Source: an uncultured Dehalococcoidales bacterium (GTDB lineage: Bacteria > Chloroflexota > Dehalococcoidia > Dehalococcoidales > UBA2162). Taken from it: DNA of 64,000 bases. The translations under genes were made by a program, and so were the position numbers. The notes below the pieces were generated by a model. The model had not been told where the DNA came from and searched no databases. It saw only the letters and a list, made by a program, of their open reading frames with translations. Positions 2,959 through 27,386 of this stretch are shown here, piece after piece. The DNA is taken from NCBI GenBank assembly GCA_964453525.1, contig CAYVOV010000003.1:2099-66098 (forward strand), written 5' to 3'. Each line of letters starts with the position of its first letter. Within the stretch, counting starts at the first letter, position 1.

Positions 2959-3939
2959 TCAACCCAATCCCAACCCCTCGACGGGACTTGCTCCATTTCG
3001 GTGGGCCTGAATAGCCTCCTCTCGCTTTAAGCCTTGAGTATAACGCCGACTCATTGTCAGGTCCTCGTGTCTTAGAAACAACTGAAGCAAGAATGAGTCT
3101 TTGGCACCTCGGAGATATTGTAAGGCACTAGTGTGCCGAAGGCGATGAACTCTCCCTCGCCCGCTCACTCCAGCTCTTTTCTTTAGGGAAACAAATGACG
3201 AAGCTAATCCGCTGACTGTGAACTGCTTGCCTTCTTCAGTTACCCAAAGAGCGTCGCTTTTCGCACGACGCCTCCTTTCCAACAGATAGAGCCAGATAGC
3301 TTTGGCTGTCTTGGAGGAAAACGGACATATGCCTACCTTGTTACCTTTACCAATGACTCGAACCCACTTTTGCTCCAGATTGAGGTCTGCGAGGTTCAAA
3401 TTCACCTGCTCACTCAAGCGCAAACCCGAGTCGATAAAGAGCAGAAGCATAGCTTTATTGCGCAGTCCGATAAACCGCGAACCAGTCTTGATGTCAAGTT
3501 CACAAACGGCAAGAAACCGCTTCAGTTCGTCTTTCTCATAAGGCTGGACGGGTGGAGGCAGTGGAGCCTTAAAATGAATATCCTTGACAGGGCTTTCCTC
3601 AACGAGCCCTTCCTCAATTCCCCAGTTAAATAAGCGCCTTAGCGCTTTGTAGTAAGGCCATGCTGTGGACGGTTTAGACCTAGAAAACCTATGGCTGCCA
3701 TTACCTGCGATATACTCAATGTTTCTTGAACCAACCCAAGATAAAAACTCTCTGATTCGCCTAGCGTCTAAAAAGTTAACGCTATCAGGCCAGCTCTGGG
3801 ATTTTGCGTAGGATAAGAAATGTTTCAGTAACTTATAATAATATTCGTGCGTGCGGAGCGCACGTCCTTCAGCTTGGAGGGAAAAGAGAAATCCCTCCAC
3901 AAAATCTACTAGGCCGATTGCTTTGTCACTCTTTTTCAC
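2959..3939 (-). CDS. tyrosine recombinase/integrase (integrase C, left element)
   Basis: 326 aa. Catalytic signature LRLSE ... HRLRHTSA ... LFLRHEDLTMSRRYT (R..H..R..Y). The start lies 110 bp from the 45-bp tRNA-derived repeat. Confidence 0.85.
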   Translation of the reverse strand: MKKSDKAIGLVDFVEGFLFSLQAEGRALRTHEYYYKLLKHFLSYAKSQSWPDSVNFLDARRIREFLSWVGSRNIEYIAGNGSHRFSRSKPSTAWPYYKALRRLFNWGIEEGLVEESPVKDIHFKAPLPPPVQPYEKDELKRFLAVCELDIKTGSRFIGLRNKAMLLLFIDSGLRLSEQVNLNLADLNLEQKWVRVIGKGNKVGICPFSSKTAKAIWLYLLERRRRAKSDALWVTEEGKQFTVSGLASSFVSLKKRAGVSGRGRVHRLRHTSALQYLRGAKDSFLLQLFLRHEDLTMSRRYTQGLKREEAIQAHRNGASPVEGLGLG

Positions 3940-3977: not shown

Positions 3978-4039
3978 TAGTCAACTGGTTGTCCTTAGTC
4001 TCAACCTACCTTTGGGGTATTAACATAGTCAACCGGTTG
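3978..4039. promoter_or_regulatory. repeated TAGTCAACnGGTTG motifs (candidate integrase C binding sites)
   Basis: tagtcaactggttg at 3978-3991 and tagtcaaccggttg at 4026-4039 (contains the palindrome caaccggttg). A degenerate ttagtctcaacc lies at 3996-4007. All sit between int C and the att repeat. Confidence 0.35.
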
Positions 4040-4044
4040 CCTAG

Positions 4045-5058
4045 CTTCGTGGTGAGCCGCGGAGGACTCGAACCTCCAACCGGCTGATTAAGAGGCGGGC
4101 ACACACGCTCAAACAGCTTAACAAACTGAGTGTCTCTCAGCTAGCGGAGTTAAGCAGTTTAAGCAAGGCTTACATCTCACAGGTTAAGCATGGAAAACGC
4201 TCGCCATCCCCGAAACTGCTCGAGATACTGGACGAGTTAGAAAGGCCAAAGAAGCCAGACAAAGACTACCTTGAGATATTCCTGCAATCCCGCCAAGCAA
4301 GGGGAGTAAGCCCAAAAACACTCCGGTATTACCAGGAAAGATTGTCTAAATTTGTCGATAGGGTCGAGTATACTCGCGCCACAAGGCAGGACATCGAGGA
4401 ATTTTTGAATTCAATCCCTCCGAACCAGTATGGCCTTGGTAATCGACACGCAACTTACCGTGCACTGAGAGCATTCTATAGGTGGCTGAGTAGCGAGTAT
4501 GAGTTACCCAATCCAGTAGCTGGAGTAGCCGCACCAATACTGGGTAAACCCATACTGCCCAGTCTCACCAGAGATCAGGTCGAGCTACTGATTCAGCATG
4601 CTGAGACTACACGTGACAGAGCCATAGTGGCACTATTTACTGAGAGTGGCTTGAGACTATCTGAGCTGGTCAGTATTACTCCAGATAAAATAGACTGGGA
4701 GTCACACACAGTGCAGATACTGGGTAAAGGCCGGAAAGAAGCTTTAGCGCCTTTCGGTGAGTTAACTGAAAAATATCTCAAGTCTTGGCTTCAGCAACAC
4801 CAGCCCAACGGTAACATCTGGGGACTCAACGAGTGGGGAATCGCCTCTATGCTCAGGAGACTGGAGTCAGCTACTGGAATACGATGTAATGCGCACGCCT
4901 TCAGAAGAACCTTCGCCTGCCTTCTTCGCAAGGCCGGTGTGGACGTAATGACTATCAAAGACTTGGGCCGGTGGGAAAGCCTAGAAATGGTGCAGAGGTA
5001 TACTAGATCGGTGAGATTCCAAGATAGCATGAGATTCTACAAAGCGCCACTTTCTTAA
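4045..5058 (+). CDS. tyrosine recombinase (integrase A) lacking its start codon in the integrated state
   Basis: Frame 1 is open from 4045 to the stop at 5056-5058. It encodes an XRE-like HTH (SVSQLAELSSLSKAYISQVKHGKR), a core-binding region and a catalytic domain (RLSE, HAFRRTFA, LGRWESLEMVQRYT). The first ATG/GTG/TTG is TTG at 4342. It is about two-thirds identical by eye to the integrase at 22840-23745. Confidence 0.8.
   Translation, partial: LRGEPRRTRTSNRLIKRRAHTLKQLNKLSVSQLAELSSLSKAYISQVKHGKRSPSPKLLEILDELERPKKPDKDYLEIFLQSRQARGVSPKTLRYYQERLSKFVDRVEYTRATRQDIEEFLNSIPPNQYGLGNRHATYRALRAFYRWLSSEYELPNPVAGVAAPILGKPILPSLTRDQVELLIQHAETTRDRAIVALFTESGLRLSELVSITPDKIDWESHTVQILGKGRKEALAPFGELTEKYLKSWLQQHQPNGNIWGLNEWGIASMLRRLESATGIRCNAHAFRRTFACLLRKAGVDVMTIKDLGRWESLEMVQRYTRSVRFQDSMRFYKAPLS
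4050..4094. repeat. distal att direct repeat (copy of tRNA-Lys nt 32-76)
   Basis: tggtgagccgcggaggactcgaacctccaaccggctgattaagag is identical 45/45 to 27311-27355. Confidence 0.9.
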
Positions 5059-7385: not shown

Positions 7386-9581
7386 CTATTTAGTTAGTTT
7401 CCCTTTCCTTAACTTTCTACGTTTCTTTGTAGCTTTTGTCTTCTTGGTCTTGGGCATAAGGCTTGGATCCTCAAGAACAGCAGCTATTGTCCCAAACCAA
7501 TGAATATGCAGATAGTGAGCTCCACGTGTAGTCGCCAGATACAGTAATTTGTTATGAAGATCGGAACCAGTAAAATTGTTCTTACGGGCATTAGCTAATA
7601 TTACAGCATCATACTCTAGACCTTTAGAAAGATATATAGGGGAAACTGCCGTCTTGGTTCGTTCATAACCTGGCTTATCAAGCAGCATAGCGTCATCTAT
7701 GCCTTCCTTGCGAAGCTTCACTGCTAGTTGAGAAGCTTCACGTGATGTCTTACATAGTACAGCAATAGACTGAATTTCTTTGGTTTTCAAAGACCTGATA
7801 TCTTCTGCTATAGCTTTTACCATTTCTTTAGCGGATTTAGAACGTATCAGGAGAGGTTTCTCCCCATGGCGTTCGTAAGCAATGGCTTTAGGCAACCTGG
7901 GCGCCGTTAGCTTCAAAATTCGGTTTGCATATTTTGTTATCTCAGATGTTGTGCGATAGCTGATGCGGATATCTGTTCTGTGAGGACGCTCTTTAGAGAA
8001 TAATCCTTTTACTTCGCTCCAGTCCTTCATACCTCGATGGGGTAATAGACTCTGTCCAATATCACCAAGTATTGTAAATGATTTGTTAGCGGAATAAACG
8101 TACAAAAGCAATAGTTCAAGGGGTGAAACATCTTGAGCTTCATCTACAACTACGTGTTCAAATGAAGGATTACTCCGTCCCTTTCTGCTTCTTTCGTTAA
8201 TGCCGTTCAATAGATAATTCAAATAGCAAATTGCAGCTAGGTCTTCTAGTTTTAAACGTTTGGTCTTCCCTGATAATGCTTTGACGAAATAATCAGTTTC
8301 TTCTTCTGTAATGACACCTTTTGACATATTAAGCAGATAATCTCGATTTGATAAAAGTTTTAGGTAGGCATTTCTAAAGTCGAGTTCAGGCCAAAATTCA
8401 TCAAATTGACTTGTAATGGCTTTACGCCGTGAGTCATCTAACTTTGTTAATAATCCTCTTCTGAATTCTCGCTCAATATTCGATATAGCCATTCTACGTT
8501 GTTCATTAAGAGGTTGATTGCCCAATTCCTTGATTATCCTCCTGACTCTAGACCTACTAATGGTTACTACTCCGCTGACAATACTTGTAGAGTTGTTTAT
8601 GAATTCATTTCGCAGAGTCTGGACATACCTATCAAGAATATGCGCCATTTGGAGTGAAACCTTTTGTTTTGCTACCTTCACTTCCATGCCTAAGTCTTTT
8701 CTGGATCCCCTCAGCAATTTCTCAAGCAACTTGTCCTCAAATTGTCTTATGCGGCGAGGTAAAGTGCTGCGAAGCCACTCAGGAATAGTCATTTGCCTTA
8801 CTCTTTCAACGCCTAGACCTGGAAGCAAGTTAGAAACATATTTGAGAAATGCTCTACTGGGGCCAAAGAAGACAACCCTATTTGGTGAAATATCTAGGTC
8901 AAGTTCATTGAACGGTGATAGCAAATAAGCTATTCTATGAATACCTACTTCGCTTTTGCCGCTGCCTGCTACGCCTTGAATGATTAGAACTCGATATGGT
9001 GTTGATGCTATGAGTTCGTACTGCTCAGGCTGGATTGTAGCAACGATCTTCTTTAATTCAGTACCCTTTGACTCAGACAACTGCCGAGAAATTCGTGTTT
9101 GTTTAACAGGTGTTACCTTCTCTCCAGGTGGTAGTAAGGGGACTTCTACAACGTCTAGCAATGTAGATTGTTCAATCAATAATTCGCGTTTTAGATTAAC
9201 AACTACTTTAATTTTTCCAGATGGGCAGGTATACTCCCCGGCTAAAGGATTATAAAAAAGCTTACCTATAGGTGCCTGCCAATTAAAAACATAGTCCAGC
9301 GGAATGTGATACTCACCCAAATAGTAAGATTCAATATTGTCCTGAGTTGCCCCCTTTACAAAATCTATACGACCGAAATATGGACTTTGCCGGGCTTCTG
9401 ATAGATTCCGGATGTTCTCCTCTTTTTTCTGGCGCATGTCACGAGCAGCTTCACCAAACACAGGTGCTTCTTCTTTAGACATGCCTAGAAAGCGTTTATC
9501 TTCTTCTATAACCTCGTCAATACGTGATATACACCGCTCTAGGTTATTCTCTTCTTCAGTATATATATTTTCCTCTGTCAT
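7386..9581 (-). CDS. UvrD-like SF1 helicase with HelD-like N-terminal domain
   Basis: Walker A GVAGSGKSE, motif II VVVDEAQD, N-terminal SPYFGRIDF and NWQAPIGKLFY. The preferred start is ATG 9581, preceded by aggagga. The track ORF extends to 9728. Confidence 0.8.
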   Translation of the reverse strand: MTEENIYTEEENNLERCISRIDEVIEEDKRFLGMSKEEAPVFGEAARDMRQKKEENIRNLSEARQSPYFGRIDFVKGATQDNIESYYLGEYHIPLDYVFNWQAPIGKLFYNPLAGEYTCPSGKIKVVVNLKRELLIEQSTLLDVVEVPLLPPGEKVTPVKQTRISRQLSESKGTELKKIVATIQPEQYELIASTPYRVLIIQGVAGSGKSEVGIHRIAYLLSPFNELDLDISPNRVVFFGPSRAFLKYVSNLLPGLGVERVRQMTIPEWLRSTLPRRIRQFEDKLLEKLLRGSRKDLGMEVKVAKQKVSLQMAHILDRYVQTLRNEFINNSTSIVSGVVTISRSRVRRIIKELGNQPLNEQRRMAISNIEREFRRGLLTKLDDSRRKAITSQFDEFWPELDFRNAYLKLLSNRDYLLNMSKGVITEEETDYFVKALSGKTKRLKLEDLAAICYLNYLLNGINERSRKGRSNPSFEHVVVDEAQDVSPLELLLLYVYSANKSFTILGDIGQSLLPHRGMKDWSEVKGLFSKERPHRTDIRISYRTTSEITKYANRILKLTAPRLPKAIAYERHGEKPLLIRSKSAKEMVKAIAEDIRSLKTKEIQSIAVLCKTSREASQLAVKLRKEGIDDAMLLDKPGYERTKTAVSPIYLSKGLEYDAVILANARKNNFTGSDLHNKLLYLATTRGAHYLHIHWFGTIAAVLEDPSLMPKTKKTKATKKRRKLRKGKLTK

Positions 9582-9660
9582 AAATCCTTCCTCCTTTGTA
9601 CCACCCTTTAAACAGCATATGATATAAATAAGTCGAATTATCCTGGATAAAGTAAGTTTC

Positions 9661-10470
9661 TTACCATCCTCCGACTTCTTGCCACATTTCTTCGGCTGCT
9701 TCATCAATCCAATCTGGGAACATTTCATCTAAGTAGTCCAATATATCAGCACCAATCTGTTCCTGAAGATCAGTTGCCGATTTAGCAGCCCTTAAGGCAT
9801 CTGGTCCACAATAGAGTCGCTGATTATTAGTGCCTTTGCACCAATTTTCAATTTCATCCAAGACTGTTTGGAGAGACCTGCATGACCATGCTGCTAAATT
9901 TTGAACCGCGCGACAATCTATCTCGCTTAGGCATTTAGCAGCTCCTCTAGCTGTTGCTTCGTATATTAATGGCAATGGGAGCCTTTGAGGCTCGATCACT
10001 GTGATTCCCCAGAGTGCTGCGTAATGACGGCAATCATCACGTATGTTATGACCAGATAGAAGGAATCTATTCATCGGAATCTTTGCGTAGAATTGACTAC
10101 TACCCTGGAGAAAATCAAGACTTTTACTATTGAAAATTAGAAGTTCATTTTTTTCTAATTTGGTTGTTAGGTGTTTCAGTTCCCAGTGGGTCACGCAAGT
10201 AACGTCTCTTGTACCGCCATCTACCTCATGTCTAAGTCCCGAAGCACTACGCTGCTCTGCGAGGGAAGTAGAGCCTGCTTTCTCGCTAAGACGGATGCCG
10301 CGTCGCTCACAAAGGTCGTAAAAGAGGTCCTCGAAATTACGACCTCTCTCATATCCATGACCAGATATTCCCCCAACCTCTACAATTGCATAAACTCTAA
10401 CTATTAGGTCAAGGATATTCTCTGGAAATAGGTTGGAATAGTCCTTTACAATTGGCTTCTTCCACCACAT
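9661..10470 (-). CDS. predicted PD-(D/E)xK fold nuclease, family unknown
   Basis: 269 aa. FEDLFYDLCERRG ... HEVDGG-(13)-WELKH fits the E...D...ExK restriction-endonuclease-like core. Confidence 0.45.
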   Translation of the reverse strand: MWWKKPIVKDYSNLFPENILDLIVRVYAIVEVGGISGHGYERGRNFEDLFYDLCERRGIRLSEKAGSTSLAEQRSASGLRHEVDGGTRDVTCVTHWELKHLTTKLEKNELLIFNSKSLDFLQGSSQFYAKIPMNRFLLSGHNIRDDCRHYAALWGITVIEPQRLPLPLIYEATARGAAKCLSEIDCRAVQNLAAWSCRSLQTVLDEIENWCKGTNNQRLYCGPDALRAAKSATDLQEQIGADILDYLDEMFPDWIDEAAEEMWQEVGGW

Positions 10471-10481
10471 CCCTGAACCCT

Positions 10482-11792: not shown

Positions 11793-11794
11793 TT

Positions 11795-13114: not shown

Positions 13115-13336
13115 ATGCCAGTTCTAGAAGATTATATAAGCGTTAATGAAGCTGCTGAGTTTCTCAAAGTTCATCCGGGCACTGTCAAGAGGCTTTGTCG
13201 TGAACGCAGGTTATCAGCCCACAAAGTCCATAATGGATGGCTAATCCACATTAACGATGTGCAGTCCTTTGCTAAGGAATATAACGGCCGGAGGGGAAGG
13301 CCAAGCAACATGGATATTAATAAAAGGGTAATTTGA
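13115..13336 (+). CDS. excisionase-family/MerR-like HTH DNA-binding protein
   Basis: ISVNEAAEFLKVHPGTVKRLCRERRLSAHKVHNGWLI matches the HTH_17/excisionase pattern. Its stop overlaps the helicase start (TGATG). Confidence 0.7.
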   Translation: MPVLEDYISVNEAAEFLKVHPGTVKRLCRERRLSAHKVHNGWLIHINDVQSFAKEYNGRRGRPSNMDINKRVI

Positions 13337-16300
13337 TGGCCAAACTTGAAGAACTGGTAGAAGGAGCCCTAGTCGAGGGAATAATTGCTGATAGCCCCGC
13401 TACTGTAATACATACGAAGTGGTTTGGTGAACAGGCTATAGAGCTAACGTACAAAAATGAACAAACGGGGACTGTCAGTAACCGTTTGTTATATCGATCA
13501 GATGAGGATGCACTCCGTCTCATAGAGACAACTTCTGCTTTGGTGTTTGATGGTGACGGCGAGACATTCCGATTAGCATCTGAAGCAAACCGCATTCGTC
13601 TCGCATACTTATTCGATCCAAGACTAGCTGTTCACGTTTCGCAAGTAGACCCATTGCCGCATCAAATAGCCGCCGTATACGAGGAAATGTTAATTAGACA
13701 ACCACTACGGTATCTCTTAGCTGACGATCCAGGTGCCGGTAAAACAATTATGGCTGGCCTATTTATAAAGGAGCTAATTCTTAGAGGAGACCTTGAAAGG
13801 TGCTTAGTCGTATGTCCTGCAAATCTCGCAGAGCAATGGCAAGATGAACTTAGCGAAAAATTCAAATTACACTTCGAGATTGTAGGGCGCGAACAAATAG
13901 AGAGTAGCCTCACCATTAATCCCTTTCTTGAAAAACCTTTCGTTATCAGCCGTATCGACCTTCTTAAACCGAGGAGAGATAAAAACGGTGAACTCGATGA
14001 ATCTAACCTTGATAGGTTAAAACAAGTGGAGTGGGACTTACTAGTTGTCGATGAAGCTCACAAAATGAGCGCCTCATTTGTTGGAGGAGATGTTAAATTA
14101 ACCGCGAGGTATAGGCTTGGTCAAATTCTGTGCGATCCACAGCATAGCCGTCATATCGTATTTCTCACTGCGACGCCTCATCATGGTAAAGAGGAAGATT
14201 TCCAGCTCTTCTTAGCTCTGCTAGACAAAGACCGCTTTGAAGGGCGCTTCAGAACAGGAGTTCATCGCGTAGATACCTCCGACATTATGCGACGGATGCT
14301 AAAGGAAGAACTTGTTGATTTCGAGGGGAAACCTTTATTTCCAGAGAGACGGGCGTATACAGTGAACTATGACCTGAGTCCATTAGAAGCACGGTTGTAT
14401 GCTGATGTAACTGAGTATGTACGTACTGAGATGAATAGAGCTGACGAGTTGGCAGAAGTAGGTTCACATCGTCGGACAGTGATTGGCTTTGCACTTACGG
14501 TTCTACAGAGACGCTTAGCCTCCTCACCGGAAGCTATATACCAATCCTTACGACGGCGTCGGGAGCGGCTGGAAAAAAGGATTGAGGAGGAAAGACATAA
14601 GAAGCAAGCAGCGGAGCTCGACCTTACTTCCGGACTTAGAGCAATTGACGAAGAGGAGATGGATGACCTTCCAGACAGAGAGACGGAAGAACTTGAAGAC
14701 CAAGTAGTTGATCTGGCATCAAATGCCCGTACTATCGCTGAACTTGAACTTGAGATTATCCGTTTAAAGGAACTAGAGAAGCTAGCTAAGGAGGTCAGAC
14801 AAAGTGACACCGACCGTAAGTGGGAGGAGCTTCGTGATCTGCTCTTGAATCGTGCTGAGATGTTTGACCAGAAGGGACGAAGAAGAAAGCTCATTATATT
14901 CTCTGAGCATCGGGACACCCTTAGGTATTTGGCTAGCAAAGTACGGAATCTGTTGGGTGATCCTACTGCAATAATTGAGATACATGGTGGGATGGGACGT
15001 GTAGAGAGAAGGAAAGCACAAAATACTTTTATTAACGACCCTACTGCTGAAATATTAATTGCCACTGATGCAGCAGGCGAGGGTATAAACCTACAACGCG
15101 CCCATCTTATGGTTAATTATGACCTTCCCTGGAATCCAAATCGTATCGAACAGAGATTTGGACGTATCCATCGTCTAGGACAGCGTGAAGTCTGTCATCT
15201 ATGGAATCTTGTTGCATATCAGACGCGTGAAGGTGCAGTCTTCCGTCGCCTTTTTGAGAAACTGGAGTCACAACGTCAAGCATTAAAGGATAAGGTATTT
15301 GATGTTCTAGGGAGAGTCTTTGACGAAATCCCACTGCGTAATCTTCTTATGGATGCAATTCGCTATGGAGACCAACCTGAAGTAAGAGCAAGGTTGGAAG
15401 AGCGAATCGATGAACTTATGAGTCCTGAACACTATAGAGAGCTTATTGAGCGATTTGCTTTGGCAACTGACACGATTGATACTACTCGTTTACAATCTCT
15501 GATGGAAGATATGGAGAGAGCTGAAGCGCTACGGCTCCAGCCCCACTTTATTGCATCCTTCTTTACAGATGCGTTTCAGCGACTAGGTGGCTCAATTAGA
15601 GAGCGGGAATCTCAGCGTTATGAAATCAGGCGGGTTCCACAAGAGATAATCAGGAGGGCCCGTCAAATCAGACGGGGGATCCCGCTGGTACACCGCTATG
15701 AACGAATAGTGTTTGAGAAAGAACGTATAAACGTAGATGAAAAACCCCCGGCTGAATTTGTAGCTCCAGGACATCCTCTGCTGGATGCCACAATTGACCT
15801 TACTTTGGAACGGCATAGTCAGCTTCTGCGTCGAGGCGCTCTTCTTGTTGATCCTAGGGAAGACGGGCCTAATACTTCAAGAGCCTTGTTATTTATTCAA
15901 CATGAGATTCACGATGGCAGAGTTGACAAGCAAGGACGAAACCGTACTGCCTCCAGGAAGCTGCATTTTGTAGAGATTTCTCAAAATGGGGAATCTCAGG
16001 ATGCTGGTGCTGCTCCCTATCTTGATTACCGATCATTAAATGATGATGAGGGAAAAGCGGTTAACCAACTTCTTCAACAGGCCTGGCTTCAAAAAGACAT
16101 TGAAGAGCAAGCTAAGGCTTATGCTATTGAATTCCTTGTGCCAAGACACTTTGAAGAAGTAAAAGCCTATCGGGAGTCGTTGGTATTGAAGACCATGGCA
16201 GCGGTGAAAGAACGCTTAACTAAGGAAATCCAATACTGGGATAAAAGGGCGGAGGAGTTGAAAGCTCAAGAACTAGCCGGTAAGAAGCCACGAATAAACT

Positions 16301-16881
16301 CTGCATTAGCACGCCGTCGTGCTGATGACCTCACTGACCGACTCCAGGCACGCATGAAAGAGCTCGAATTAGAAAGGCAACTGTCACCCCGGCCACCAGT
16401 GGTTGTCGGTGGTGCTCTTGTAGTTCCAGAGAAAGTGTTAGCACACATGCTAAATCGTCCTGTGCCAGACCGTGGGGGCGTAGAAAAAGATGTGGTAGAA
16501 GAGCTTGCTATGAAGGCGGTAGAAGAAGCCGAGAGAAAGACTGGGCGAATTCCTACTCGTATGCCGGTCAATAACCCTGGTTACGATATCGAATCAAGAG
16601 ATCCTGAGACTGGGCATCTACATTTTATTGAGGTAAAAGGACGCCAGGCTGATGCCGACATCGTACATATTACGAAGAACGAATGGCTTGTCGCCTTGAA
16701 CAAGAGGGGCATGTTTATTCTAGCTATTGGACGTGTTCGTGATAACCAAGTGGAGTCATTGCATTATATCCGTGACCCGATGGCCCGCGCTGTAGCCGGT
16801 GATCTGACTTTTGGTGTAACGGGTATTGATCTGAATATTAATGAACTACTGAAGTTGGAGACTGTGGAGGCTATACGATGA
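13333..16881 (+). CDS. SNF2-family helicase with C-terminal DUF3883 (PD-(D/E)xK-like) domain; Hma-type helicase
   Basis: DDPGAGKT, VVDEAHKM, LTATPHHG, ATDAAGEGINLQ, QRFGRIHRLGQ. C-terminal GYDIESRD...FIEVKGR...ITKNEW. Confidence 0.85.
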   Translation: MMAKLEELVEGALVEGIIADSPATVIHTKWFGEQAIELTYKNEQTGTVSNRLLYRSDEDALRLIETTSALVFDGDGETFRLASEANRIRLAYLFDPRLAVHVSQVDPLPHQIAAVYEEMLIRQPLRYLLADDPGAGKTIMAGLFIKELILRGDLERCLVVCPANLAEQWQDELSEKFKLHFEIVGREQIESSLTINPFLEKPFVISRIDLLKPRRDKNGELDESNLDRLKQVEWDLLVVDEAHKMSASFVGGDVKLTARYRLGQILCDPQHSRHIVFLTATPHHGKEEDFQLFLALLDKDRFEGRFRTGVHRVDTSDIMRRMLKEELVDFEGKPLFPERRAYTVNYDLSPLEARLYADVTEYVRTEMNRADELAEVGSHRRTVIGFALTVLQRRLASSPEAIYQSLRRRRERLEKRIEEERHKKQAAELDLTSGLRAIDEEEMDDLPDRETEELEDQVVDLASNARTIAELELEIIRLKELEKLAKEVRQSDTDRKWEELRDLLLNRAEMFDQKGRRRKLIIFSEHRDTLRYLASKVRNLLGDPTAIIEIHGGMGRVERRKAQNTFINDPTAEILIATDAAGEGINLQRAHLMVNYDLPWNPNRIEQRFGRIHRLGQREVCHLWNLVAYQTREGAVFRRLFEKLESQRQALKDKVFDVLGRVFDEIPLRNLLMDAIRYGDQPEVRARLEERIDELMSPEHYRELIERFALATDTIDTTRLQSLMEDMERAEALRLQPHFIASFFTDAFQRLGGSIRERESQRYEIRRVPQEIIRRARQIRRGIPLVHRYERIVFEKERINVDEKPPAEFVAPGHPLLDATIDLTLERHSQLLRRGALLVDPREDGPNTSRALLFIQHEIHDGRVDKQGRNRTASRKLHFVEISQNGESQDAGAAPYLDYRSLNDDEGKAVNQLLQQAWLQKDIEEQAKAYAIEFLVPRHFEEVKAYRESLVLKTMAAVKERLTKEIQYWDKRAEELKAQELAGKKPRINSALARRRADDLTDRLQARMKELELERQLSPRPPVVVGGALVVPEKVLAHMLNRPVPDRGGVEKDVVEELAMKAVEEAERKTGRIPTRMPVNNPGYDIESRDPETGHLHFIEVKGRQADADIVHITKNEWLVALNKRGMFILAIGRVRDNQVESLHYIRDPMARAVAGDLTFGVTGIDLNINELLKLETVEAIR

Positions 16882-19610
16882 CCTACCGCAAGAAGTTAAT
16901 AGAGGTAGCCATGCCTCTTGATGCTATTAACAACGCATCTGCTCACGAAAAAGCAGTGCGGCGTGGTCATCCATCCGCGCTCCATTTGTGGTGGGCGCGA
17001 AGACCTCTCGCTGCTTGTAGAGCAATACTCTTTGCCTCATTGGTTGATGATCCCAGTAATGACTTGCCCGAAAATGAGGCAAATAAGGAGCGAGAACGCT
17101 TGTTCCGTATACTTGAAGACCTTGTGAGATGGGAAAACATTAATAACGAAACGGTAATCGGTATGGCGAGGGAAGAGATAATTAGGAGTACGAGAGATAA
17201 TCCTCCTTCACTCATAGACCCCTTTTGTGGTGGAGGTGCTATACCGCTGGAAGCTCAACGCCTGGGATTAGAAGCCTATGCCTCTGACTTGAATCCAGTG
17301 GCTGTTCTGATTACCAAGGCACTTATTGAAATACCAGCTAAGTTTGTCGGAAAACCTCCGGTGAATCCGGATTCAAAGAAAGGTACCGGTAGTACTGCTG
17401 GCTGGAGAGGTGCTTCAGGTTTGGCAGCTGACGTGCGTTTCTACGGCCAATGGATGCACAATGAGGCGTGGAAGCGTATTGGTCATCTGTATCCCAAAGG
17501 ACCAAATGGGGAGACAGTCATCACTTGGCTATGGACAAGAACAGTAAAATGCCCCAATCCTGCATGTGGTACTCAAATGCCTTTAGTGCGGTCCTTCTGG
17601 CTATCCACGCAGAAAGGCAAAAGGGCTTGGGTAAAACCTATCTTGGATTTAGATAACAAGACAGTGCGGTTCGAAACGAGTATAAGTGACAGTGATGCAC
17701 CACAAGGAACAGTCAACCGTTTGGGAGCTCGCTGTATCCTATGTGGTACGGCAGTATCCTTTGACTACATTAGAGCAGAGGGTAAAGCAGGATGCATAAA
17801 TAGGCGGTTAATGGCAATGGTTGGTGAGAACCAACACGGACGTATCTATTTGTCTCCAGACAATAATCACGAAAGTATCGCGGTTTCTGCTGATCCTGAC
17901 TGGATTCCCGATACAGAGTTACCAGAACAAGCGCTCGGATTTCGTGTTCAATTATATGGTATTTCGAGGCATGCAGAACTTTTCACAAGCCGTCAGCTTG
18001 TATTCCTCTCTGTGCTATGTGATCTAGTAGAGGAGGCCCATCTTCAGGTTATTGAACACTCTGGGAGAGATGAAGAATATGCTAATGCGGTTACCACTTA
18101 CTTAGGTCTAACAGCAAGTAAAATAGTTGATTCATGTAATGCATTCTGTCGCTGGCGGTCCGATCATGCTACAGCAACCAACCTGTTCGCTCGTCCCACA
18201 TTGTCCATGCTATGGGACTTTGCCGAGGTAAACCCATTTCAATTTGTCAACTACGCAGATCTTGCATCTAAGAGTGCAGCCGTATTGGAAACACTCAGCT
18301 TAGGGAAGTTGCATAGTGTACCAGCTGGAGCAGTCAGTCAACTGGACGCCACACAAGCGCTTCCAGTTTCTATACCAGCTCTCATTGCCACTGACCCTCC
18401 ATATTACGATAATATCGGTTATGCAGACCTCTCTGATTTCTTTTATATATGGCTCCGTCGCATGTTGAAGAGCATTTATCCTGAATTGTTTTCAACCTTG
18501 CTAACACCAAAGAATCAAGAGCTTATAGCATCACCATACCGATTTGACGGAAGCAAACAGAAAGCAAAGGAGCATTTCGAAAATGGACTCGAGAAAAACT
18601 TTGTGCTTATGCGAACAAAGGCTGCCTCGGAGTATCCAGTTACACTCTATTATGCTTTCAAGCAAGCTGAGAATGACAATGGTAGCGACGCAAATAGTAA
18701 ATCAGAAGTTCCTACTCTTGCACAGGCATCCACAGGCTGGGAGACCATGCTTCAGGGCCTGTTAAGTGCTGGCTTTCAGATTACGGCTACTTGGCCAATG
18801 AGGACAGAGCTAGGTACGAGGATGCGTGGGATTTCGTCTAATGCCCTTGCTTCATCAGTCGTACTTGCTTTTAGACTCAAGCAGAAAGATGCGCCAATTG
18901 CTACACGAAGGGAATTTTTGGCTGCCTTGCGAAAGGATTTACCTCAAGAATTGAGAGTACTCATGAATGGTCGGGTAGCCCCGGTTGATCTAGCGCAGGC
19001 ATCCATTGGCCCAGGAATGGCCATCTTTTCTCGCTACAGCAAGGTACTAGAGGCGAATGGTTCAGCCATGACGGTGAGAACCGCTCTTCAGGAGATTAAT
19101 TATTTCCTAGAAGACTACCTAGCACAGCAGGAGGGAGACCTAGACGTAGAGAGCCAGTTCTGCGTTGTTTGGTTTCAACAATATGGCTCTAGAGAAGGCC
19201 CCTTTGGAGAGGCGGATGTGCTGTCAAGAGCTAAGGATGTCAGTGTTGATGGTCTGGCTCGTCTTGGTCTGGTCGATGCTGAAAGAGGTAAAGTACATCT
19301 AACCCTGCGAGAGAGTTATGAAGATGATTGGGATCCCAGAAATCAGTCGCGGATCACTGCTTGGGAAGCTTGCCAACGCCTAGTGTGGAGCCTGAATGAG
19401 AACGGGGAGCAGGAAACAGGTCGCTTGGCAAGACGATTGGGTGGTGTAGCTGAGCAAGCAAGACAACTGGCATATCGTCTCTACGGTATTGCTGACCGTA
19501 AGGGATGGGCTGAAGAGGCTTCCGGCTATAACGCTTTAGTATCTTCTTGGTCTGAAATACAAAAGGCAGCCGCTGCTGCCGCTGAGGAAGCTCAAGGGAG
19601 GATGATGTGA
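16878..19610 (+). CDS. DUF1156-family DNA methyltransferase (N6A/N4C type) with Zn ribbon
   Basis: N-terminal EKAVRRGHPSALHLWWARRPLAACRA. DPFCGGGAIPLEA (SAM site). CPNPACG...CILCG. IATDPPYYD motif IV. ATGA overlap with the helicase stop. Confidence 0.85.
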   Translation: MTYRKKLIEVAMPLDAINNASAHEKAVRRGHPSALHLWWARRPLAACRAILFASLVDDPSNDLPENEANKERERLFRILEDLVRWENINNETVIGMAREEIIRSTRDNPPSLIDPFCGGGAIPLEAQRLGLEAYASDLNPVAVLITKALIEIPAKFVGKPPVNPDSKKGTGSTAGWRGASGLAADVRFYGQWMHNEAWKRIGHLYPKGPNGETVITWLWTRTVKCPNPACGTQMPLVRSFWLSTQKGKRAWVKPILDLDNKTVRFETSISDSDAPQGTVNRLGARCILCGTAVSFDYIRAEGKAGCINRRLMAMVGENQHGRIYLSPDNNHESIAVSADPDWIPDTELPEQALGFRVQLYGISRHAELFTSRQLVFLSVLCDLVEEAHLQVIEHSGRDEEYANAVTTYLGLTASKIVDSCNAFCRWRSDHATATNLFARPTLSMLWDFAEVNPFQFVNYADLASKSAAVLETLSLGKLHSVPAGAVSQLDATQALPVSIPALIATDPPYYDNIGYADLSDFFYIWLRRMLKSIYPELFSTLLTPKNQELIASPYRFDGSKQKAKEHFENGLEKNFVLMRTKAASEYPVTLYYAFKQAENDNGSDANSKSEVPTLAQASTGWETMLQGLLSAGFQITATWPMRTELGTRMRGISSNALASSVVLAFRLKQKDAPIATRREFLAALRKDLPQELRVLMNGRVAPVDLAQASIGPGMAIFSRYSKVLEANGSAMTVRTALQEINYFLEDYLAQQEGDLDVESQFCVVWFQQYGSREGPFGEADVLSRAKDVSVDGLARLGLVDAERGKVHLTLRESYEDDWDPRNQSRITAWEACQRLVWSLNENGEQETGRLARRLGGVAEQARQLAYRLYGIADRKGWAEEASGYNALVSSWSEIQKAAAAAAEEAQGRMM

Positions 19611-19611
19611 C

Positions 19612-22413
19612 ATGGTTACTAAACTAACACCTTGGAAAGATGCTATAACACCACACCCAGATGTAGCTTCTGGTAGATATCTGCAGGCAGAATTTGCTGC
19701 TGACTTAGCTCAGGTACTTGAGGGTCGTGCTGATCCTGAGTACCAAGCTCCTGTCGAGTTCTATAATCGCACCTACATAACCTCCGGAATCAGGGGTCTG
19801 TTACGCTCAGCACTGGAGCGTCTTACTGGAAGTTGTGGCGAACCAGTAATCCAACTCAAAACCTCCTTCGGCGGCGGCAAGACACACAGTATGCTGGCGC
19901 TTTATCACCTGCTATCTGGTAATAAGCAACTGCTGAAGCTCAATCCGATTAAAGACTTATTAAAAGAAGTTGAGCTGGAAACTATCCCTAAGGCGGCATG
20001 TGCAGTGTTGGTTGGAACATACCTGGATCCGACAAGAGGGCAGCCTAAGGAGGAACTCGGGGGAGGTGAACTACGTACTTTATGGGGCGAGATGGCTTTT
20101 CAGCTCGCCGGGGTGAAGGGCTATCGTCTAGTCGATGAAGCAGACGCTAGTGGGAATGCTCCAGGTGGTAGGACTCTTGACCAACTGTTCAGTATGGTCG
20201 GCCCGTGTGTAATCTTAATAGATGAGCTAGTAGCATATATACGCAATATTGGACGAAGCCGTGGTCTACCTGGAGGAACCTTTGATTCTAACATGACATT
20301 CATACAGAATCTAACTGAATCCCTAAAAAGGGCTCCGAATGCTGTACTGGTTGCTGCCATACCGGAATCAAACATCGAGGTTGGTGGCCCAGAGGGTCTG
20401 CAGGTTCTACAACGTGTTGAGAAGACCTTTGAGCGTATATCAATTACCTGGACACCAGCAGAGGCTTACGAATCTTTTGAAATTGTTAGACGTAGGCTTT
20501 TTAGCGAGATACAAGATGAAGGCGCTAGGGAATCAACATGTGCTGCTTTTAGTCGCCTTTATCGCAGCAATTCAAATGATTTTCCAATCGAGTGCCGAGA
20601 GGTTGAATATGAAAGGCGGATGCAGGCCAGTTACCCAATTCATCCTGAAGTCTTTGATCGCCTATACGATGATTGGTCAACCTTGGAACGATTCCAGCGG
20701 ACAAGAGGTGTCCTAAGGCTGATGGCAGCTGTTATCCATCAACTATGGCAAGCAGGTGATGCCTACCCAATGATTATGGCAGGCTCCCTTCCCCTGTATG
20801 CTCCTCCGGTAAGAGATGAATTACTGAGATACCTTAATGACCAATGGACTCCTGTATTAAACGAAGTGGATGGCCTAGAATCTGAAGCTGCCCGAATTGA
20901 TAGTGAAAACCAAAGATTTGGCCAAATTCAGGCTGCCCGACGCCTTGCACGTACGGCATTTTTAGGAAGTGTGCCATTCAAGGCTACACGAGGTATTGAA
21001 GACGTGCGTGTTCGGCTTGGTGTTGTACAACCGGATGAATCAATATCTACCTATAATGATGCACTTGGACGCTTGCAGCAACGGCTTCAGTTTCTATACA
21101 CATCTGGTCAAGGTAGATATTGGTTTGATGTACAGCCTAATTTAACTCGTACTGTGGCCGATCGCTCATCACGTGTTTCAGAAAAAGAAATATATCACCA
21201 TCTTGAAGATGAACTGATTGGAATTATACGTAGTAAAGGTGATTTTGCTGGCATACATGTATGTCCTGAGAATACAGCGGACGTTCCGGATGAACCAGCG
21301 GCTCGCTTAGTAGTTCTCTCTCCTAGTTATCCCCACAAGCGTGCTAATGGTGAAAGTGCTGCTTTAACCCAGGCAAAACAAATTTTGGAGAATCGAGGTA
21401 ACTCACCAAGACGCTATAGGAACATGTTGGTCTTTGTTGCTGTTGATGAAGATGCCATCCAGATTCTAACGGACGAAACCAGACGCTATTTAGCCTGGCT
21501 TTCGATTCAGAAGGATTCCTTGGCATTGAACCTTGACAGAGCGCAGGAAAGACAAGTTAAAGAGGCTGTCGACAAGGGAGATAGGACTATTGCTGCTCAG
21601 CTTGACTCTGCTTATCAATGGGCCCTATCACCTAAACAAGAAGGAACCGGCCCACTTGAATGGGAAACTATCTTGTTGAAGGGTAATGACCTTGGGTCGA
21701 CGGGAGGATTAGTACAACGTGCATCGTATAGATTACAGAGCCAAGAGCTTCTCATTACAAGCTGGTCTCCAATTCATTTGTGTCGAGAATTAGACCAGTA
21801 TTTATGGAAAGAAGGGCAATCTCATATTAGTGTCAAACAGCTCTGGGAATACTTTGCCACATATCCATATCTCTCAAGACTTAGAGACCACGATGTTCTT
21901 TTAATGACTATTAAAGCAGGTGTTGTAACACGCGATTTCTTCGGATACGCAACTGGAGTTAAAGAAAAGAAAGGGTCAGAAGCCCCAGATTACATAGGAC
22001 TTACATTTGGGGGAATACCCCCTGGTGTTTACTATGATGAGAGCAGCGTATTAGTGAGGCCAAAAGTCGCTGAAAAAAGCATAAGAAAGGCTGAGATGAC
22101 CAGTGAAGAAGGTACTCAAGTTAAAACTGGTGAGACTGGAACGAAAGAGGAAGTAGAAGATAGGGTCGTTGTAAAAGCACCAAAGCGATTTTATGCTACC
22201 GTTCGCCTGAACCCAATGAGAATGTCAAGTGAAGCTGGAACCATTGGTCAGGAAGTTATACAACACTTACAAGCACTGCTTGGTGCAGATGTCCAAATTA
22301 CCCTAGATATTGAGGCGAATGTACCAGAAGGTGTTCCGGACCAAATCATTCGAATTGTGTCTGAAAACGCTCGGACTCTAAAATTTGAGAGCTTCGGATT
22401 TGAGGAAGAATAA
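19612..22413 (+). CDS. DUF499-family ATPase
   Basis: N-terminal LTPWKDAITPHPDVASGRYLQAEFAADLAQV. Walker A SFGGGKTHS. Walker B VILIDELVAY. Starts 1 nt after the methylase stop. Confidence 0.8.
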   Translation: MVTKLTPWKDAITPHPDVASGRYLQAEFAADLAQVLEGRADPEYQAPVEFYNRTYITSGIRGLLRSALERLTGSCGEPVIQLKTSFGGGKTHSMLALYHLLSGNKQLLKLNPIKDLLKEVELETIPKAACAVLVGTYLDPTRGQPKEELGGGELRTLWGEMAFQLAGVKGYRLVDEADASGNAPGGRTLDQLFSMVGPCVILIDELVAYIRNIGRSRGLPGGTFDSNMTFIQNLTESLKRAPNAVLVAAIPESNIEVGGPEGLQVLQRVEKTFERISITWTPAEAYESFEIVRRRLFSEIQDEGARESTCAAFSRLYRSNSNDFPIECREVEYERRMQASYPIHPEVFDRLYDDWSTLERFQRTRGVLRLMAAVIHQLWQAGDAYPMIMAGSLPLYAPPVRDELLRYLNDQWTPVLNEVDGLESEAARIDSENQRFGQIQAARRLARTAFLGSVPFKATRGIEDVRVRLGVVQPDESISTYNDALGRLQQRLQFLYTSGQGRYWFDVQPNLTRTVADRSSRVSEKEIYHHLEDELIGIIRSKGDFAGIHVCPENTADVPDEPAARLVVLSPSYPHKRANGESAALTQAKQILENRGNSPRRYRNMLVFVAVDEDAIQILTDETRRYLAWLSIQKDSLALNLDRAQERQVKEAVDKGDRTIAAQLDSAYQWALSPKQEGTGPLEWETILLKGNDLGSTGGLVQRASYRLQSQELLITSWSPIHLCRELDQYLWKEGQSHISVKQLWEYFATYPYLSRLRDHDVLLMTIKAGVVTRDFFGYATGVKEKKGSEAPDYIGLTFGGIPPGVYYDESSVLVRPKVAEKSIRKAEMTSEEGTQVKTGETGTKEEVEDRVVVKAPKRFYATVRLNPMRMSSEAGTIGQEVIQHLQALLGADVQITLDIEANVPEGVPDQIIRIVSENARTLKFESFGFEEE

Positions 22414-22446: not shown

Positions 22447-22821
22447 TTAGCTTCCGATATGCCGCGCGCCCAATTCTTCTATTTCTTTTCGAGACCGAAC
22501 CACATTTTGGGGTAAACCAACAACCTTTGACTCTGAATAGGCATTACTACTAACTATCGTCCTTACTTGCTTTCCAATACTGCGACTATACTGGGTAAGG
22601 TCTTCCATTATTCTTAGTTGCTTAGCGTATAGGTCTACTATTGGCTTGAGCAAAGTTACCACCTGCTTGACTGCGTCTTCCACTTCACTCAGTCTCTGCT
22701 CAGTGGCTAGTCGAGCAGGTGTGTCTTGGGTAGTAGTCATCTGGTGGACAAACGTTTTGTGTCCCCTCAAACCTTGGGTATTCTTAAATTCTCTTCCGCA
22801 AATTTCACACTTAACACTCAT
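22447..22821 (-). CDS. classical C2H2 zinc-finger protein
   Basis: KCEICGREFKNTQGLRGHKTFVH fits Cx2Cx3Fx5Lx2Hx4H exactly. Starts 18 nt after the integrase B stop, on the same strand. Confidence 0.6.
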   Translation of the reverse strand: MSVKCEICGREFKNTQGLRGHKTFVHQMTTTQDTPARLATEQRLSEVEDAVKQVVTLLKPIVDLYAKQLRIMEDLTQYSRSIGKQVRTIVSSNAYSESKVVGLPQNVVRSRKEIEELGARHIGS

Positions 22822-22839
22822 TAGATTCCTCCTTAATAA

Positions 22840-23745
22840 TTATGTTTTCTCGTTTAAGAGAGAAGCCGGATAAAACTTCAGGCTATCATCAAAATCTACT
22901 GAACGGGTATACCGCTGCACCATTTCCAGGGATTCCCATCGTCCTAGATCTTTAATGGTCATGGTGTCTACTCCGGCTTTCCGAAGCAGACAGGCAAAGG
23001 TTCTCCTTAATGAATGAGCGTTACAGGTTATGCCTGTCTCTTTCTCAAGCCTGCGGAGCATCGAAGCGATTCCCCATCCAGTCAGCCCCCAAATGTTGCT
23101 ATCGCCAGGTTGGTACTCCTGTAGCCAGGCTCTCAGGTATTTTTCTGTCAGGTCACCGAATGCTGCATAAGCTTCCTTCCTCCCTTTTCCCAGTATTCGA
23201 ATAGTCCTGTTTGACCAGTTGATATGTCCAAGTAGAATATTCGCAAGCTCCGATAACCTTAATCCGCTCTCAACGAACAGGGCAACAATGGCTTTATCCC
23301 TTACGGAAGCCGCTTTTTCGATAAGGATAAGCACCTGCTCTTTTACTAACGCAGGAAATATAGGTTTACCCAGGATTGGAGCTGGCATACCCTCCATTGG
23401 ATTCGGAATGCCGTACTCACGGTTCAACCATTTATAGAGAGCTTTGATTGCCCGGTATGAAGCATGACGATTTCCCAATCCGTATTTATTAGGAGGAATA
23501 GTATTCAAGTACCGTTGTATATCTTGGCGGGTGGCATGCAGGATATCGACAGCACGGACTAACTTTGATAAGCGCTCACGATAATACCTGAAGGTCTTCG
23601 GGCTTACCCCCATTGATTCCCGCGATTGCAGGAATAACTCTAGGTAGTCCTTGTCCTCCACTTTGTGGCGCTTTAAATAGTCTCTTAGCGACATATAACG
23701 CTCTTGCAATAATGTTTGTGCCAACCGTGAGCTTACATAACGCAC
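22840..23745 (-). CDS. tyrosine recombinase (integrase B), intact
   Basis: 301 aa with its own ATG. RLSE, HSLRRTFA, LGRWESLEMVQRYT. Paralog of integrase A. Confidence 0.9.
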   Translation of the reverse strand: MRYVSSRLAQTLLQERYMSLRDYLKRHKVEDKDYLELFLQSRESMGVSPKTFRYYRERLSKLVRAVDILHATRQDIQRYLNTIPPNKYGLGNRHASYRAIKALYKWLNREYGIPNPMEGMPAPILGKPIFPALVKEQVLILIEKAASVRDKAIVALFVESGLRLSELANILLGHINWSNRTIRILGKGRKEAYAAFGDLTEKYLRAWLQEYQPGDSNIWGLTGWGIASMLRRLEKETGITCNAHSLRRTFACLLRKAGVDTMTIKDLGRWESLEMVQRYTRSVDFDDSLKFYPASLLNEKT

Positions 23746-23840
23746 GCTCCAGCTATAAATATGATATACTAGATTTAGAATATGAGGGGACGAATAATGT
23801 CTGTTAAATGGTTAAACTCTGGCTAATTTAGGGATAAAAA

Positions 23841-24467: not shown

Positions 24468-24552
24468 AGTGTATATCTTACAATTATTAATGAAAGTGAC
24501 AGCTAATTTTGAAGCTAGTATATTTATAGCTGTAGATAATATACGCTAACTG

Positions 24553-24581
24553 TTGACATACCTCCTTGAATGGTGTATTAT
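24553..24581 (+). promoter_or_regulatory. sigma70-like promoter
   Basis: TTGACA (24553-24558), 17-bp spacer, TATTAT (24576-24581). Confidence 0.45.
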
Positions 24582-27174: not shown

Positions 27175-27270
27175 AGAAATTAGACTAAAAGTTAAGCAGT
27201 TTGTTAAGCAAAATTGAGGCTAAAATCGCGAATTTTGTTAAGCAAACTGCTGAGTATACTGAGTAGCTGA

Positions 27271-27380
27271 AAGGAGAACCGTTAAAAATGAGGAAAATTA
27301 GCCTCAAAAATGGTGAGCCGCGGAGGACTCGAACCTCCAACCGGCTGATTAAGAGTCAGCTGCTCTGCCAGTTGAGCTAG
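27271..27380 (+). other. detached 5' module of integrase A (RBS, ATG, 8 codons) reading antisense through tRNA-Lys
   Basis: AGGAG at 27272-27276, ATG at 27288. MRKISLKN then enters the 45-bp repeat in frame. In the integrated state the frame stops at TAG 27378-27380 (30 codons). Confidence 0.7.
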
Positions 27381-27386
27381 CGGCCC
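27311..27386 (-). tRNA. tRNA-Lys: tRNA-Lys (anticodon CUU), CCA encoded
   Basis: Manual cloverleaf: acceptor GGGCCGC/GCGGCTC, D arm GCTC-AACTGGCA-GAGC, anticodon arm GCTGA-CTCTTAA-TCAGC, T arm GGAGG-TTCGAGT-CCTCC, ACCA tail. 76 nt. Confidence 0.9.

Follow-up and report, generated by a model that had tools for sequence, protein, structure and literature searches.

Integrases that disrupt their own gene were called exclusive to archaea in a 2021 review, and this exclusivity has been used to argue for an archaeal-specific evolution (PMC8371274). In SSV1, pTN3 and pT26-2, the phage-type attachment core (attP) lies within the integrase open reading frame (ORF) and the target is a tRNA gene (PMC8371274, PMC7253208). 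Integration of such SSV-type elements leaves the N-terminal part of the gene beside the intact tRNA and the C-terminal part at the far end, after which excision is expected to depend on a full-length integrase from another source (PMC8371274, PMC7253208). The Pfam family given to these suicidal, or SSV-type, integrases is PF16795 (Phage_integr_3; PMC8371274). Here we describe a stretch of 64,000 nucleotides from an uncultured Dehalococcoidales bacterium (the window), in which an island bordered by a tRNA-Lys gene carries an integrase gene, integrase A, with the same layout: the attP core falls within the ORF, and the two parts of the gene stand at opposite ends of the island. An earlier note on this DNA had likened integrase A to the SSV1 type. 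As a mechanism, attP within the integrase ORF, the likeness stands; as a family relationship it does not. Unlike the SSV-type proteins, integrase A combines a Xer-like catalytic domain (PF00589) and a SAM-like domain with an N-terminal helix-turn-helix (HTH) of the XRE type, and the hosts of its family are bacterial, namely Dehalococcoidia and other Chloroflexota. The cut, at codons 9-23, removes the start and a disordered tail but leaves the folded domains whole, and in small relatives a promoter and a Xis-like gene are split off together with the leader. Membership of the SSV family was rejected: with E values up to 0.1, the Pfam matches of the window integrase are PF00589, PF02899, PF13495, PF01381, PF13560, PF00376 and PF11932, without PF16795; the nearest relatives in the PDB are XerA (4a8e, at 5e-19) and XerD (1a0p, at 3e-14); and the host is not an archaeon. 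The protein is not a chromosome-dimer resolvase either, as it is hit by the NCBIfam models but scores far below all their equivalog cut-offs (XerA_Arch, 139.7 bits versus 220; XerC, 114 versus 335; XerD, 97 versus 330). In fact, unlike the Xer resolvases, integrase A has an extra N-terminal HTH, resides on a tRNA-flanked island and belongs to a family with many tRNA specificities. Because the protein is Xer-like and not of the SSV family, the window family appears to be an independent bacterial version of the archaeal suicidal design, placed at the extreme 5' end of the gene. The earlier note knew of no bacterial description, and we found none of a self-decapitating integrase in the full-text literature, a coverage that excludes subscription-only papers.

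Three bacterial arrangements come closest. In Myxococcus phage Mx8, so far as outlined in a later paper that lists Tojo et al. 1996 (PMC4383910), the IntP ORF extends across attP in a tRNA gene and its 3' end is affected by integration. By that outline Mx8 resembles the window in being a bacterial element whose integration alters the integrase gene, yet IntP keeps its start and gains a different C-terminus, whereas the window gene loses its 5' end, including the start codon. An arrangement of the Mx8 type was discarded for integrase A, the core being at codons 9-23 and the 3' end about 960 bp away. In the mycobacteriophages BPs, Brujita and Charlie, attP overlaps a tRNA 3' end and falls within the coding sequence of the repressor, in an operon of rep and int (PMC9262239). 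As in the window, a tRNA-derived core is translated and integration acts as a genetic switch; however, what is split there is the 3' end of the repressor, with removal of a degradation tag, and the integrase ORF remains whole (PMC9262239). Integration-dependent immunity of this kind does not describe the window, where the core is inside the integrase gene, the C-terminus of the protein (...RFYKAPLS) has no ssrA-like or -LAA-like tag, and no separate repressor spans the core. Finally, in ICEclc and ICEKp1 the joining of the ends sets a promoter from the far end before the integrase gene, and the integrated state is favoured (PMC13023037). Integrase expression is thus set by the excised versus the integrated state, as it may be in the window, but these elements rewire transcription only: the ORF and its start stay intact, and the integrated gene is transcribed from the tRNA promoter (PMC13023037). 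As these sources describe them, neither Mx8 nor integration-dependent immunity nor the switches of integrative and conjugative elements remove the start codon of the integrase itself.

The tRNA-Lys island and the two parts of integrase A

The features on which the argument depends are as follows.

4045..5058, plus strand: body of integrase A, an open frame of 337 codons and a stop, with an in-frame TAG (4042-4044) ahead of it
4050..4094, plus strand: distal att core, the displaced 3' 45 nt of tRNA-Lys(CTT) in antisense, read as integrase A codons 9-23 (GEPRRTRTSNRLIK)
4099..4242, plus strand: XRE-type HTH, integrase A residues 25-72 (HTH_3 at 5.7e-6)
4267..4500, plus strand: SAM-like core-binding domain, residues ~81-158 (PF02899 and PF13495 matches)
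4561..5010, plus strand: tyrosine-recombinase catalytic domain, residues 179-328 (PF00589 at 1.2e-25)
27272..27310, plus strand: detached 5' module of integrase A (AGGAG, ATG and the leader MRKISLKN), in the same phase as the distal ORF
27288..27380, plus strand: chromosomal stub ORF of 30 codons, leader and antisense tRNA (MRKISLKNGEPRRTRTSNRLIKSQLLCQLS, then the stop at 27378-27380)
27311..27355, plus strand: tRNA-proximal att core, the copy of the 45-bp repeat within the intact tRNA gene
27311..27386, minus strand: intact tRNA-Lys(CTT), into which the island inserted and which it restores (ARAGORN)

The 45-bp direct repeat (4050-4094 and 27311-27355) is exact and is the sole such pair within the window. 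It covers tRNA-Lys(CTT), the only tRNA gene of the window, from the anticodon loop (tRNA position 32) to the 3' end (position 76); a third copy of the tRNA-Lys fragment was not found there, even with three mismatches allowed. An intact tRNA gene, a displaced 45-nt 3' fragment and two integrase genes in between compose the anatomy of Islander-type elements, and the segment 4050-27355 appears to be a 23.3-kb integrative island at the 3' end of tRNA-Lys(CTT). Recomputation confirmed the central observation of the earlier note, that the frame of integrase A is open from 4045 to 5058 without any ATG, GTG or TTG before the TTG at 4342. Only near-cognate codons precede it (CTG 4084, ATT 4087, CTG 4126, ATC 4174, CTG 4216, ATA 4225, CTG 4228, ATA 4276 and CTG 4282); the stop codon is at 5056-5058, about 960 bp from the att core. 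At the other end of the island, AGGAG (27272-27276) and the ATG at 27288 open a frame which enters the repeat in phase, as had been proposed, T27311 and T4050 both being third codon positions (of AAT and CGT, respectively). The 5' module is thus 23.2 kb from the body (4095-5058), and the N-terminal part amounts to just 22 codons; in the chromosome its frame runs antisense through the tRNA and, as noted earlier, ends after 30 codons. Joining 27288-27355 to 4095-5058, as circularisation would, yields the single ORF of 343 codons that had been foreseen, MRKISLKN-GEPRRTRTSNRLIK-RRAHTLKQLNKL..., in which Pfam recognises HTH_3 (30-68), the SAM-like core-binding domain (82-157) and Phage_integrase (179-328). 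The catalytic residues R210, K234, H290, R293, W316 and Y325 are invariant in an alignment of 26 sequences (alignment A1), so that the catalytic domain carries the R-K-H-R-(H/W)-Y signature of tyrosine recombinases.

An AlphaFold2 model of the 343-residue protein, built from the 26-sequence alignment (mean pLDDT 77), places the HTH helices at 25-33, 36-43, 47-54 and 62-72, the first beginning two residues past the core-encoded segment, while residues 1-22, that is, the leader and the core-encoded peptide, are disordered (pLDDT <50). Because these residues are disordered and helix 1 runs from residue 25, the model implies that translation must start at or upstream of the att core. The tRNA constrains the sequence of the core, where a start codon cannot evolve.

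Related islands and the phase of their starts

A protein search with the reconstituted integrase gave 2204 matches, many of the top ones being 340-360 aa long at a coverage of 98-100%. The homologues all retain the HTH and a complete core-binding domain upstream of the equivalent of 4342. Immediately ahead of the HTH, their N-termini consist of the 3' halves of tRNAs translated in antisense, for example GEPRRTRTSNRLIKS, GVPGGIRTHDPLLRRQ, GAGDGIRTRDSLLG, GEPHRNRTCNLLIKS, EAPGTRTRNRLIKS, PGLEPGTYCLEG and GRDSNPSGRLQRP; at the genome loci described next, such peptides include GEPRRTRTSNRLIKS, GVPGGIRTHDPLLRRQ, GAGDGIRTRDSLLG, WQRLDLNQRPKAYE, ERETGFEPATACLEGR and GAPKGIRIP. What stands before the tRNA-derived peptide differs widely between proteins, as it would if integrated copies had been extended by gene callers into arbitrary flanking DNA. 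A genome scan recovered 78 loci, nearly all in metagenome-assembled genomes of Dehalococcoidia or other Chloroflexota, Dehalogenimonas alkenigignens included; a few short contigs among the related loci are binned as archaea or Planctomycetota. Throughout the 52 distinct HTH-type loci (52/52) the integrase frame is open through the entire tRNA-derived segment, the antisense-tRNA peptides occur in all three frames relative to the T-loop, and the stretch from the core to the HTH lacks a conserved start codon. A start on the far side of the core, with the antisense strand of the tRNA read as a tolerated tail, explains these open frames in three phases. On the contigs of P0001, the closest homologue (82% identity), an IS110 transposase and chromosomal-looking genes follow the integrase, and no second island end was found. 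A search of IMG/VR viral contigs with the family alignment returned no relative; these elements are not catalogued as viruses. At two loci (L006, 8455-9775; L086, 9697-10020) the integrase frame continues upstream without a stop and reaches the 3' end of another, different gene for a tyrosine recombinase, which indicates tandem islands at one tRNA that yield spurious fusion ORFs in annotations.

Both ends of related islands were then compared, with a limit of 10 kb in the genome scan, asking for an in-phase start codon at the tRNA-proximal end and a frame open through the repeat. This pattern was found in 11 of the 12 loci with an integrase-side fragment and an intact, opposite-strand tRNA downstream, and in three extra islands obtained by protein look-ups (L094, tRNA-Lys; L095, tRNA-Arg; L096, tRNA-Gln). 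In total, an in-phase ATG or GTG open through the repeat is present in 14/15 islands, compared with 5/30 for the other two frames (Fisher p = 9e-7), so that the conservation of phase between tRNA-proximal start and distal ORF, on which the earlier proposal turned, extends across related islands. The tRNA targets of the 14 positive islands are those for Lys, Arg, Gly, SeC, Glu, Met, Asn and Gln. Leaders of two-ended islands are 7-28 codons long, all 14 starts have a purine-rich Shine-Dalgarno-like run (GAGG, GGAG or GGGG) no more than 22 nt upstream, and the reconstituted proteins measure 343-366 aa in 13/14, L068 being frameshifted. The leaders read as follows, MDRISVKQ also figuring among the homologous ones, alongside MRKVKQ, MRKISLKN and MGRISYKN.

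Window: MRKISLKN
L040 and L060: MRKVKQ...
L068: VRKVKQ...
L008: MDRISVKQKVKQ
L095: MTTVKQSVKQ

Might an in-phase start upstream of the tRNA gene be fortuitous, with an integrase that merely lost its 5' end? Taken one locus at a time, it is not unusual for a start to occur in phase ahead of any stop, as the control frames illustrate (about 1/6). Yet the pattern recurs in 14/15 diverged islands at tRNAs for eight amino acids, the leaders are homologous and follow purine-rich Shine-Dalgarno-like runs, the GTTAAGCA motif is shared on the flanks of the core, and contiguous versions of the gene exist. The comparative data already refute this explanation, and we regard chance as extremely improbable.

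One of the islands with the phased start, L002, spans 9.5 kb in a cultured organism, D. alkenigignens, at about 1,421,387-1,430,954 of KQ758903.1 (GCA_001466665.1): MNPKIKQTVKQTRKPT adjoins tRNA-Lys and the integrase body lies 9.5 kb away. Besides the integrase, L002 carries an AEP-type primase, a small-terminase-like gene (Terminase_2) and an HTH_17 Xis-like gene (16077-17967 and 19248-19415), a gene set reminiscent of phage satellites. Relatives can be smaller still (L060, 3.9 kb; L009, 4.5 kb; L040, 5.0 kb), with an integrase, a gene at the position of a replication protein and a 58-aa Xis-like gene that overlaps the leader ATG at its 3' end. The replication-position gene has a Pfam AAA_25 match in L060 and none in L040; the Xis-like gene matches HTH_17 in L040 and L009 and has no Pfam match in L060, while for L002 the HTH_17 match was precomputed. 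Ahead of the Xis-like gene L040 has a perfect TTGACA-17-TATAAT promoter, and in L060 the match is 10/12.

Genes in which leader, core and integrase body are contiguous exist in nature (L001, L084, L085 and L100), although some may be tandem junctions. In L100 (protein P0099), the same perfect promoter as in L040, xis, an overlapping ATG, the leader MRKVKQIVKQ..., the core and int follow one another in one piece. P0002, encoded on contig L001, starts MGRISYKN-GEPHRSRTCNLLIKS, and there leader, core and integrase body are contiguous and a complete tRNA is absent; MGRISYKN appears to be the same leader as MRKISLKN of the window. A start of the homologues near the equivalent of 4342, which by the earlier note would have refuted its proposal, was not observed. 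A metagenome pattern scan, which demanded the leader motif, the T-loop and the HTH in one stretch, found two contigs only, L084 and L085. In L085, a 1.6-kb metagenome contig, the xis frame continues without a stop through the core into int; the Xis-like ORF (1-300) crosses a tRNA-Arg-derived core in frame and with no separate start, which predicts a Xis-Int fusion protein. In L084, a 23-nt partial copy of the core (2305-2327) lies 577 bp upstream of the junction (2882-2920), delimiting a mini element without integrase. At L099 (271-330), just ~35 nt of the leader arm is kept beside a chromosomal-looking gene. Junctions of the L084 and L099 kind, which look like products of accretion, would re-arm the integrase while integrated.

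Probable start site, proposed switch and routes of excision

Taken together, we consider it very probable that the gene of integrase A is truly split by integration and translated from the leader ATG. A different view is that the att core belongs to a 5' untranslated region and that translation begins at an internal codon beyond it, either TTG 4342 or one in the vicinity of LLNK. If so, the open frame across the tRNA fragment and the ATG at the far end would be coincidental, and integration would at most part the gene from a promoter, as in ICEclc and ICEKp1. Gene calls are in line with this view, as many begin MLNKL..., LGVSQ... or MSKAY..., and the public annotation of the window protein (P0019, 238 aa) begins at TTG 4342. 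Moreover, ~44% of the 52 loci have an ATG or TTG at the first Leu of LLNK (counted by eye), and HTH-less relatives such as integrase B (IntB), described below, suggest that the HTH is dispensable for this recombinase fold. In the window, however, no ATG, GTG or TTG occurs from the core to 4342 (the LLNK position reads CAG CTT AAC AAA CTG), and 4342 encodes L106, which is invariant in alignment A1 and lies inside the core-binding domain. The internal start-type codons of relatives are unconserved and sit at hydrophobic helix-1 sites, where exchange between Leu and Met is expected; HTH helix 1 (25-33) would be truncated by their use. An untranslated core also leaves unexplained the phase result (14/15 versus 5/30), the Shine-Dalgarno-like run at 14/14 starts, and frames kept over leaders of 7-28 codons in three tRNA phases. 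On these grounds, an internal start near LLNK or at TTG 4342 was rejected as the true start, and we judge an untranslated core to be unlikely.

The flanks of the core share a further signature, the motif GTTAAGCA, with 8 copies in the window compared with 1.97 expected (0/100 shuffles attained 8).

26968: fourth leader-side GTTAAGCA copy
27191..27244, plus strand: three direct GTTAAGCA motifs (at 27191, 27203 and 27237), candidate arm-type sites on the leader side, non-coding, 74-120 nt before the core
4149-4156 and 4183-4190, plus strand: two GTTAAGCA motifs, candidate arm-type sites in HTH codons (ELS and QVKH)

The integrase-side copies are 99 and 133 nt past the start of the distal core. 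Related loci carry the motif almost wholly within these two arms, often as pairs 12 nt apart, with an enrichment of ~330-fold in the leader arm; the proximal copy stands 33-36 nt from the T-loop TCGAAC in five loci (hand-counted). Because the recognition helix of the HTH is near-invariant while the cores vary with the target tRNA, the HTH probably binds the GTTAAGCA repeats on both arms flanking the core. An inverted copy (27388-27395, minus strand), on the chromosomal side and 2 nt past the tRNA 5' end, may be chance or a remnant; nothing comparable is present at the D. alkenigignens locus.

From these observations a mechanism can be proposed. In the circular form the island ends would be joined, so that AGGAG, the ATG at 27288 and MRKISLKN run straight into the 45-bp core; the core would be read from the antisense strand of the tRNA as a disordered, basic tail, followed by the HTH, core-binding and catalytic domains. 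The 343-aa integrase would be made only from joined ends, be it an incoming or excised circle or a tandem junction. When the element recombines with the tRNA gene, probably at that end of the identity block which lies in the anticodon loop, the Shine-Dalgarno sequence, the ATG and the leader would be left at the tRNA-proximal end, while the integrase body would land 23 kb off, behind a displaced tRNA fragment and an in-frame TAG. Because start module and body end up 23 kb apart, integration would turn integrase A off and thereby stabilise the insert. Use of the leader ATG and silence of the integrated gene are what we infer from this anatomy, and the same applies to the route of excision. Excision would have to draw on a complete integrase in trans, from a sibling or incoming element, on a leader-core-int junction rebuilt by tandem accretion, on the HTH-less paralogue IntB or on rare non-canonical initiation. 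The suggestion of the earlier note, that the element would be locked in unless integrase B or a non-canonical start supplies activity, is reasonable. As for transcription, the window element has no xis-like gene; upstream of its leader are four plus-strand genes (23841-27174) and a 113-nt spacer with motif copies, and the leader may be co-transcribed with these genes.

Several observations weigh against this proposal, or restrict it. At the window, AGGAG is 11 nt ahead of the ATG at 27288, which is rather far, and a simple scan revealed no sigma-70-like promoter between 26900 and the leader. In L062, the exception among the 15 islands and one cut short where its contig ends, a stop codon directly precedes the core. 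In the integrated D. alkenigignens copy, a GTG occurs in the flank two codons before the core; hence, integration does not remove every start in all copies. Among the 52 loci, an ATG or TTG is found at the first Leu of LLNK in ~23 and at the next Leu in ~16 (alignment counted by eye), and these codons could act as internal starts in those relatives, though not in the window. Because of such chance flank starts, together with Met or TTG-encoded Leu in helix 1 of many relatives, some lineages may have a leaky off switch. The junction of L084 looks more like a product of tandem insertion or accretion than a free circle. Lastly, with its intact IntB the element may be able to do without integrase A.

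This last point leads to the idea that integrase A is a relic and that IntB is the working recombinase, both integrating and excising, or that the island is immobile.

22840..23745, minus strand: integrase B, an intact HTH-less paralogue with its own start codons, 67% identical to integrase A over 281 aa

IntB keeps the catalytic residues, and integrase A is not conventionally translatable in its present state. A module of a C2H2 zinc finger, IntB and protein X is syntenic between the window (22447-24467) and L001 (5841-8021), whose second integrase is 78% identical to IntB. Because of this synteny with L001, the one close relative compared, IntB appears to be a conserved component and not debris; the window island and L001, both larger elements, each carry two paralogous recombinases. 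Against a relic, it is the frame of integrase A, not that of IntB, that the island-bounding repeat adjoins and enters, and no tRNA-like sequence was found beside IntB in the window. In addition, no stop interrupts the 337 codons of integrase A, none of its catalytic residues is missing, and most two-ended relatives, including those of 3.9-10 kb, have an HTH-type integrase only. A relic thus seems very unlikely to us. The two ideas are nonetheless compatible to a degree, as IntB may serve as excision or resolution enzyme and integrase A for integration. HTH-less relatives of IntB (48-51% identity) are found in L069, L073 and L076-L079, directly after an intact, sense tRNA-SeC; in this group (L069, ~9865-10001) the start codon is just past the tRNA 3' end, which is the classical arrangement, in the opposite orientation to the HTH subfamily.

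Overall, we think it likely that Dehalococcoidia and other Chloroflexota harbour a large, undescribed family of Xer-like, HTH-fused integrases that are decapitated by integration, independently of archaea. An antisense tRNA sequence would serve as a disposable tail, retargeted to the tRNAs of at least eight amino acids with the frame kept; the promoter, the Xis-like gene and the start would stay by the tRNA while the body is exiled, with re-arming by accretion, a sibling element or IntB.

Island content, neighbouring features and significance

The main cargo of the window island is a defence system.

13333..22413, plus strand: complete Hma (helicase, methylase, ATPase) anti-phage system (PADLOC)

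HmaA (SNF2 helicase), HmaB (DUF1156 methylase) and HmaC (DUF499 ATPase) are each detected at full length with PADLOC E = 0. Other cargo includes a UvrD-like helicase and a DUF2779 protein, while the backbone comprises the C2H2 zinc-finger protein, integrase B, protein X, a protein with HTH_3 and NYN domains and a SET-domain protein. On the minus strand inside the island, 7386-13009 encodes a UvrD/GajB-like helicase (780 aa) followed by ORFs of 269, 436 and 404 aa, for which neither Pfam nor PADLOC gave a match; together these genes may form a second defence module of an uncharacterised type. The complement of the leader ORF (27289-27306, minus strand) forms a terminator-like hairpin, weak with a stem of 5 pairs only, and then a T-run, directly past the 3' end of tRNA-Lys; the element may in this way provide a terminator for the tRNA gene that it regenerates. 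Outside the distal repeat, by 110 bp, starts an unrelated third integrase (IntC; 326 aa, 2959-3939, minus strand), which probably marks an older adjoining island at the same tRNA-Lys; no further copy of the tRNA fragment, as its other end, was found within the window. Between IntC and the repeat, AGTCAAC(T/C)GGTTG occurs twice (3979-3991 and 4027-4039), and the palindrome CAACCGGTTG of these copies resembles CAACCGGCTG of the att core. Also outside the island, a unit of 26 nt (GCTCAGGGTG[A/C]GTGGGAATGTGTGCC) is tandemly duplicated at 32576-32627.

For these genomes, the split gene is a precise delimiter of islands, such as the Hma-bearing one of the window, and many such genes are mis-annotated in Dehalococcoidia, with truncated or random N-termini. 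With its cultured host and an island of ~9.5 kb, D. alkenigignens is a tractable model for how such elements leave. One integrase scaffold serving many tRNA cores, with HTH and arm motif conserved, is a natural series for the study of specificity, perhaps useful for engineering the specificity of integrases. More broadly, a widespread bacterial family on an unrelated, Xer-like scaffold would show that the self-disrupting design is convergent, and convergence would point to a probable adaptive value, as an inbuilt off switch by which the insert is stabilised.

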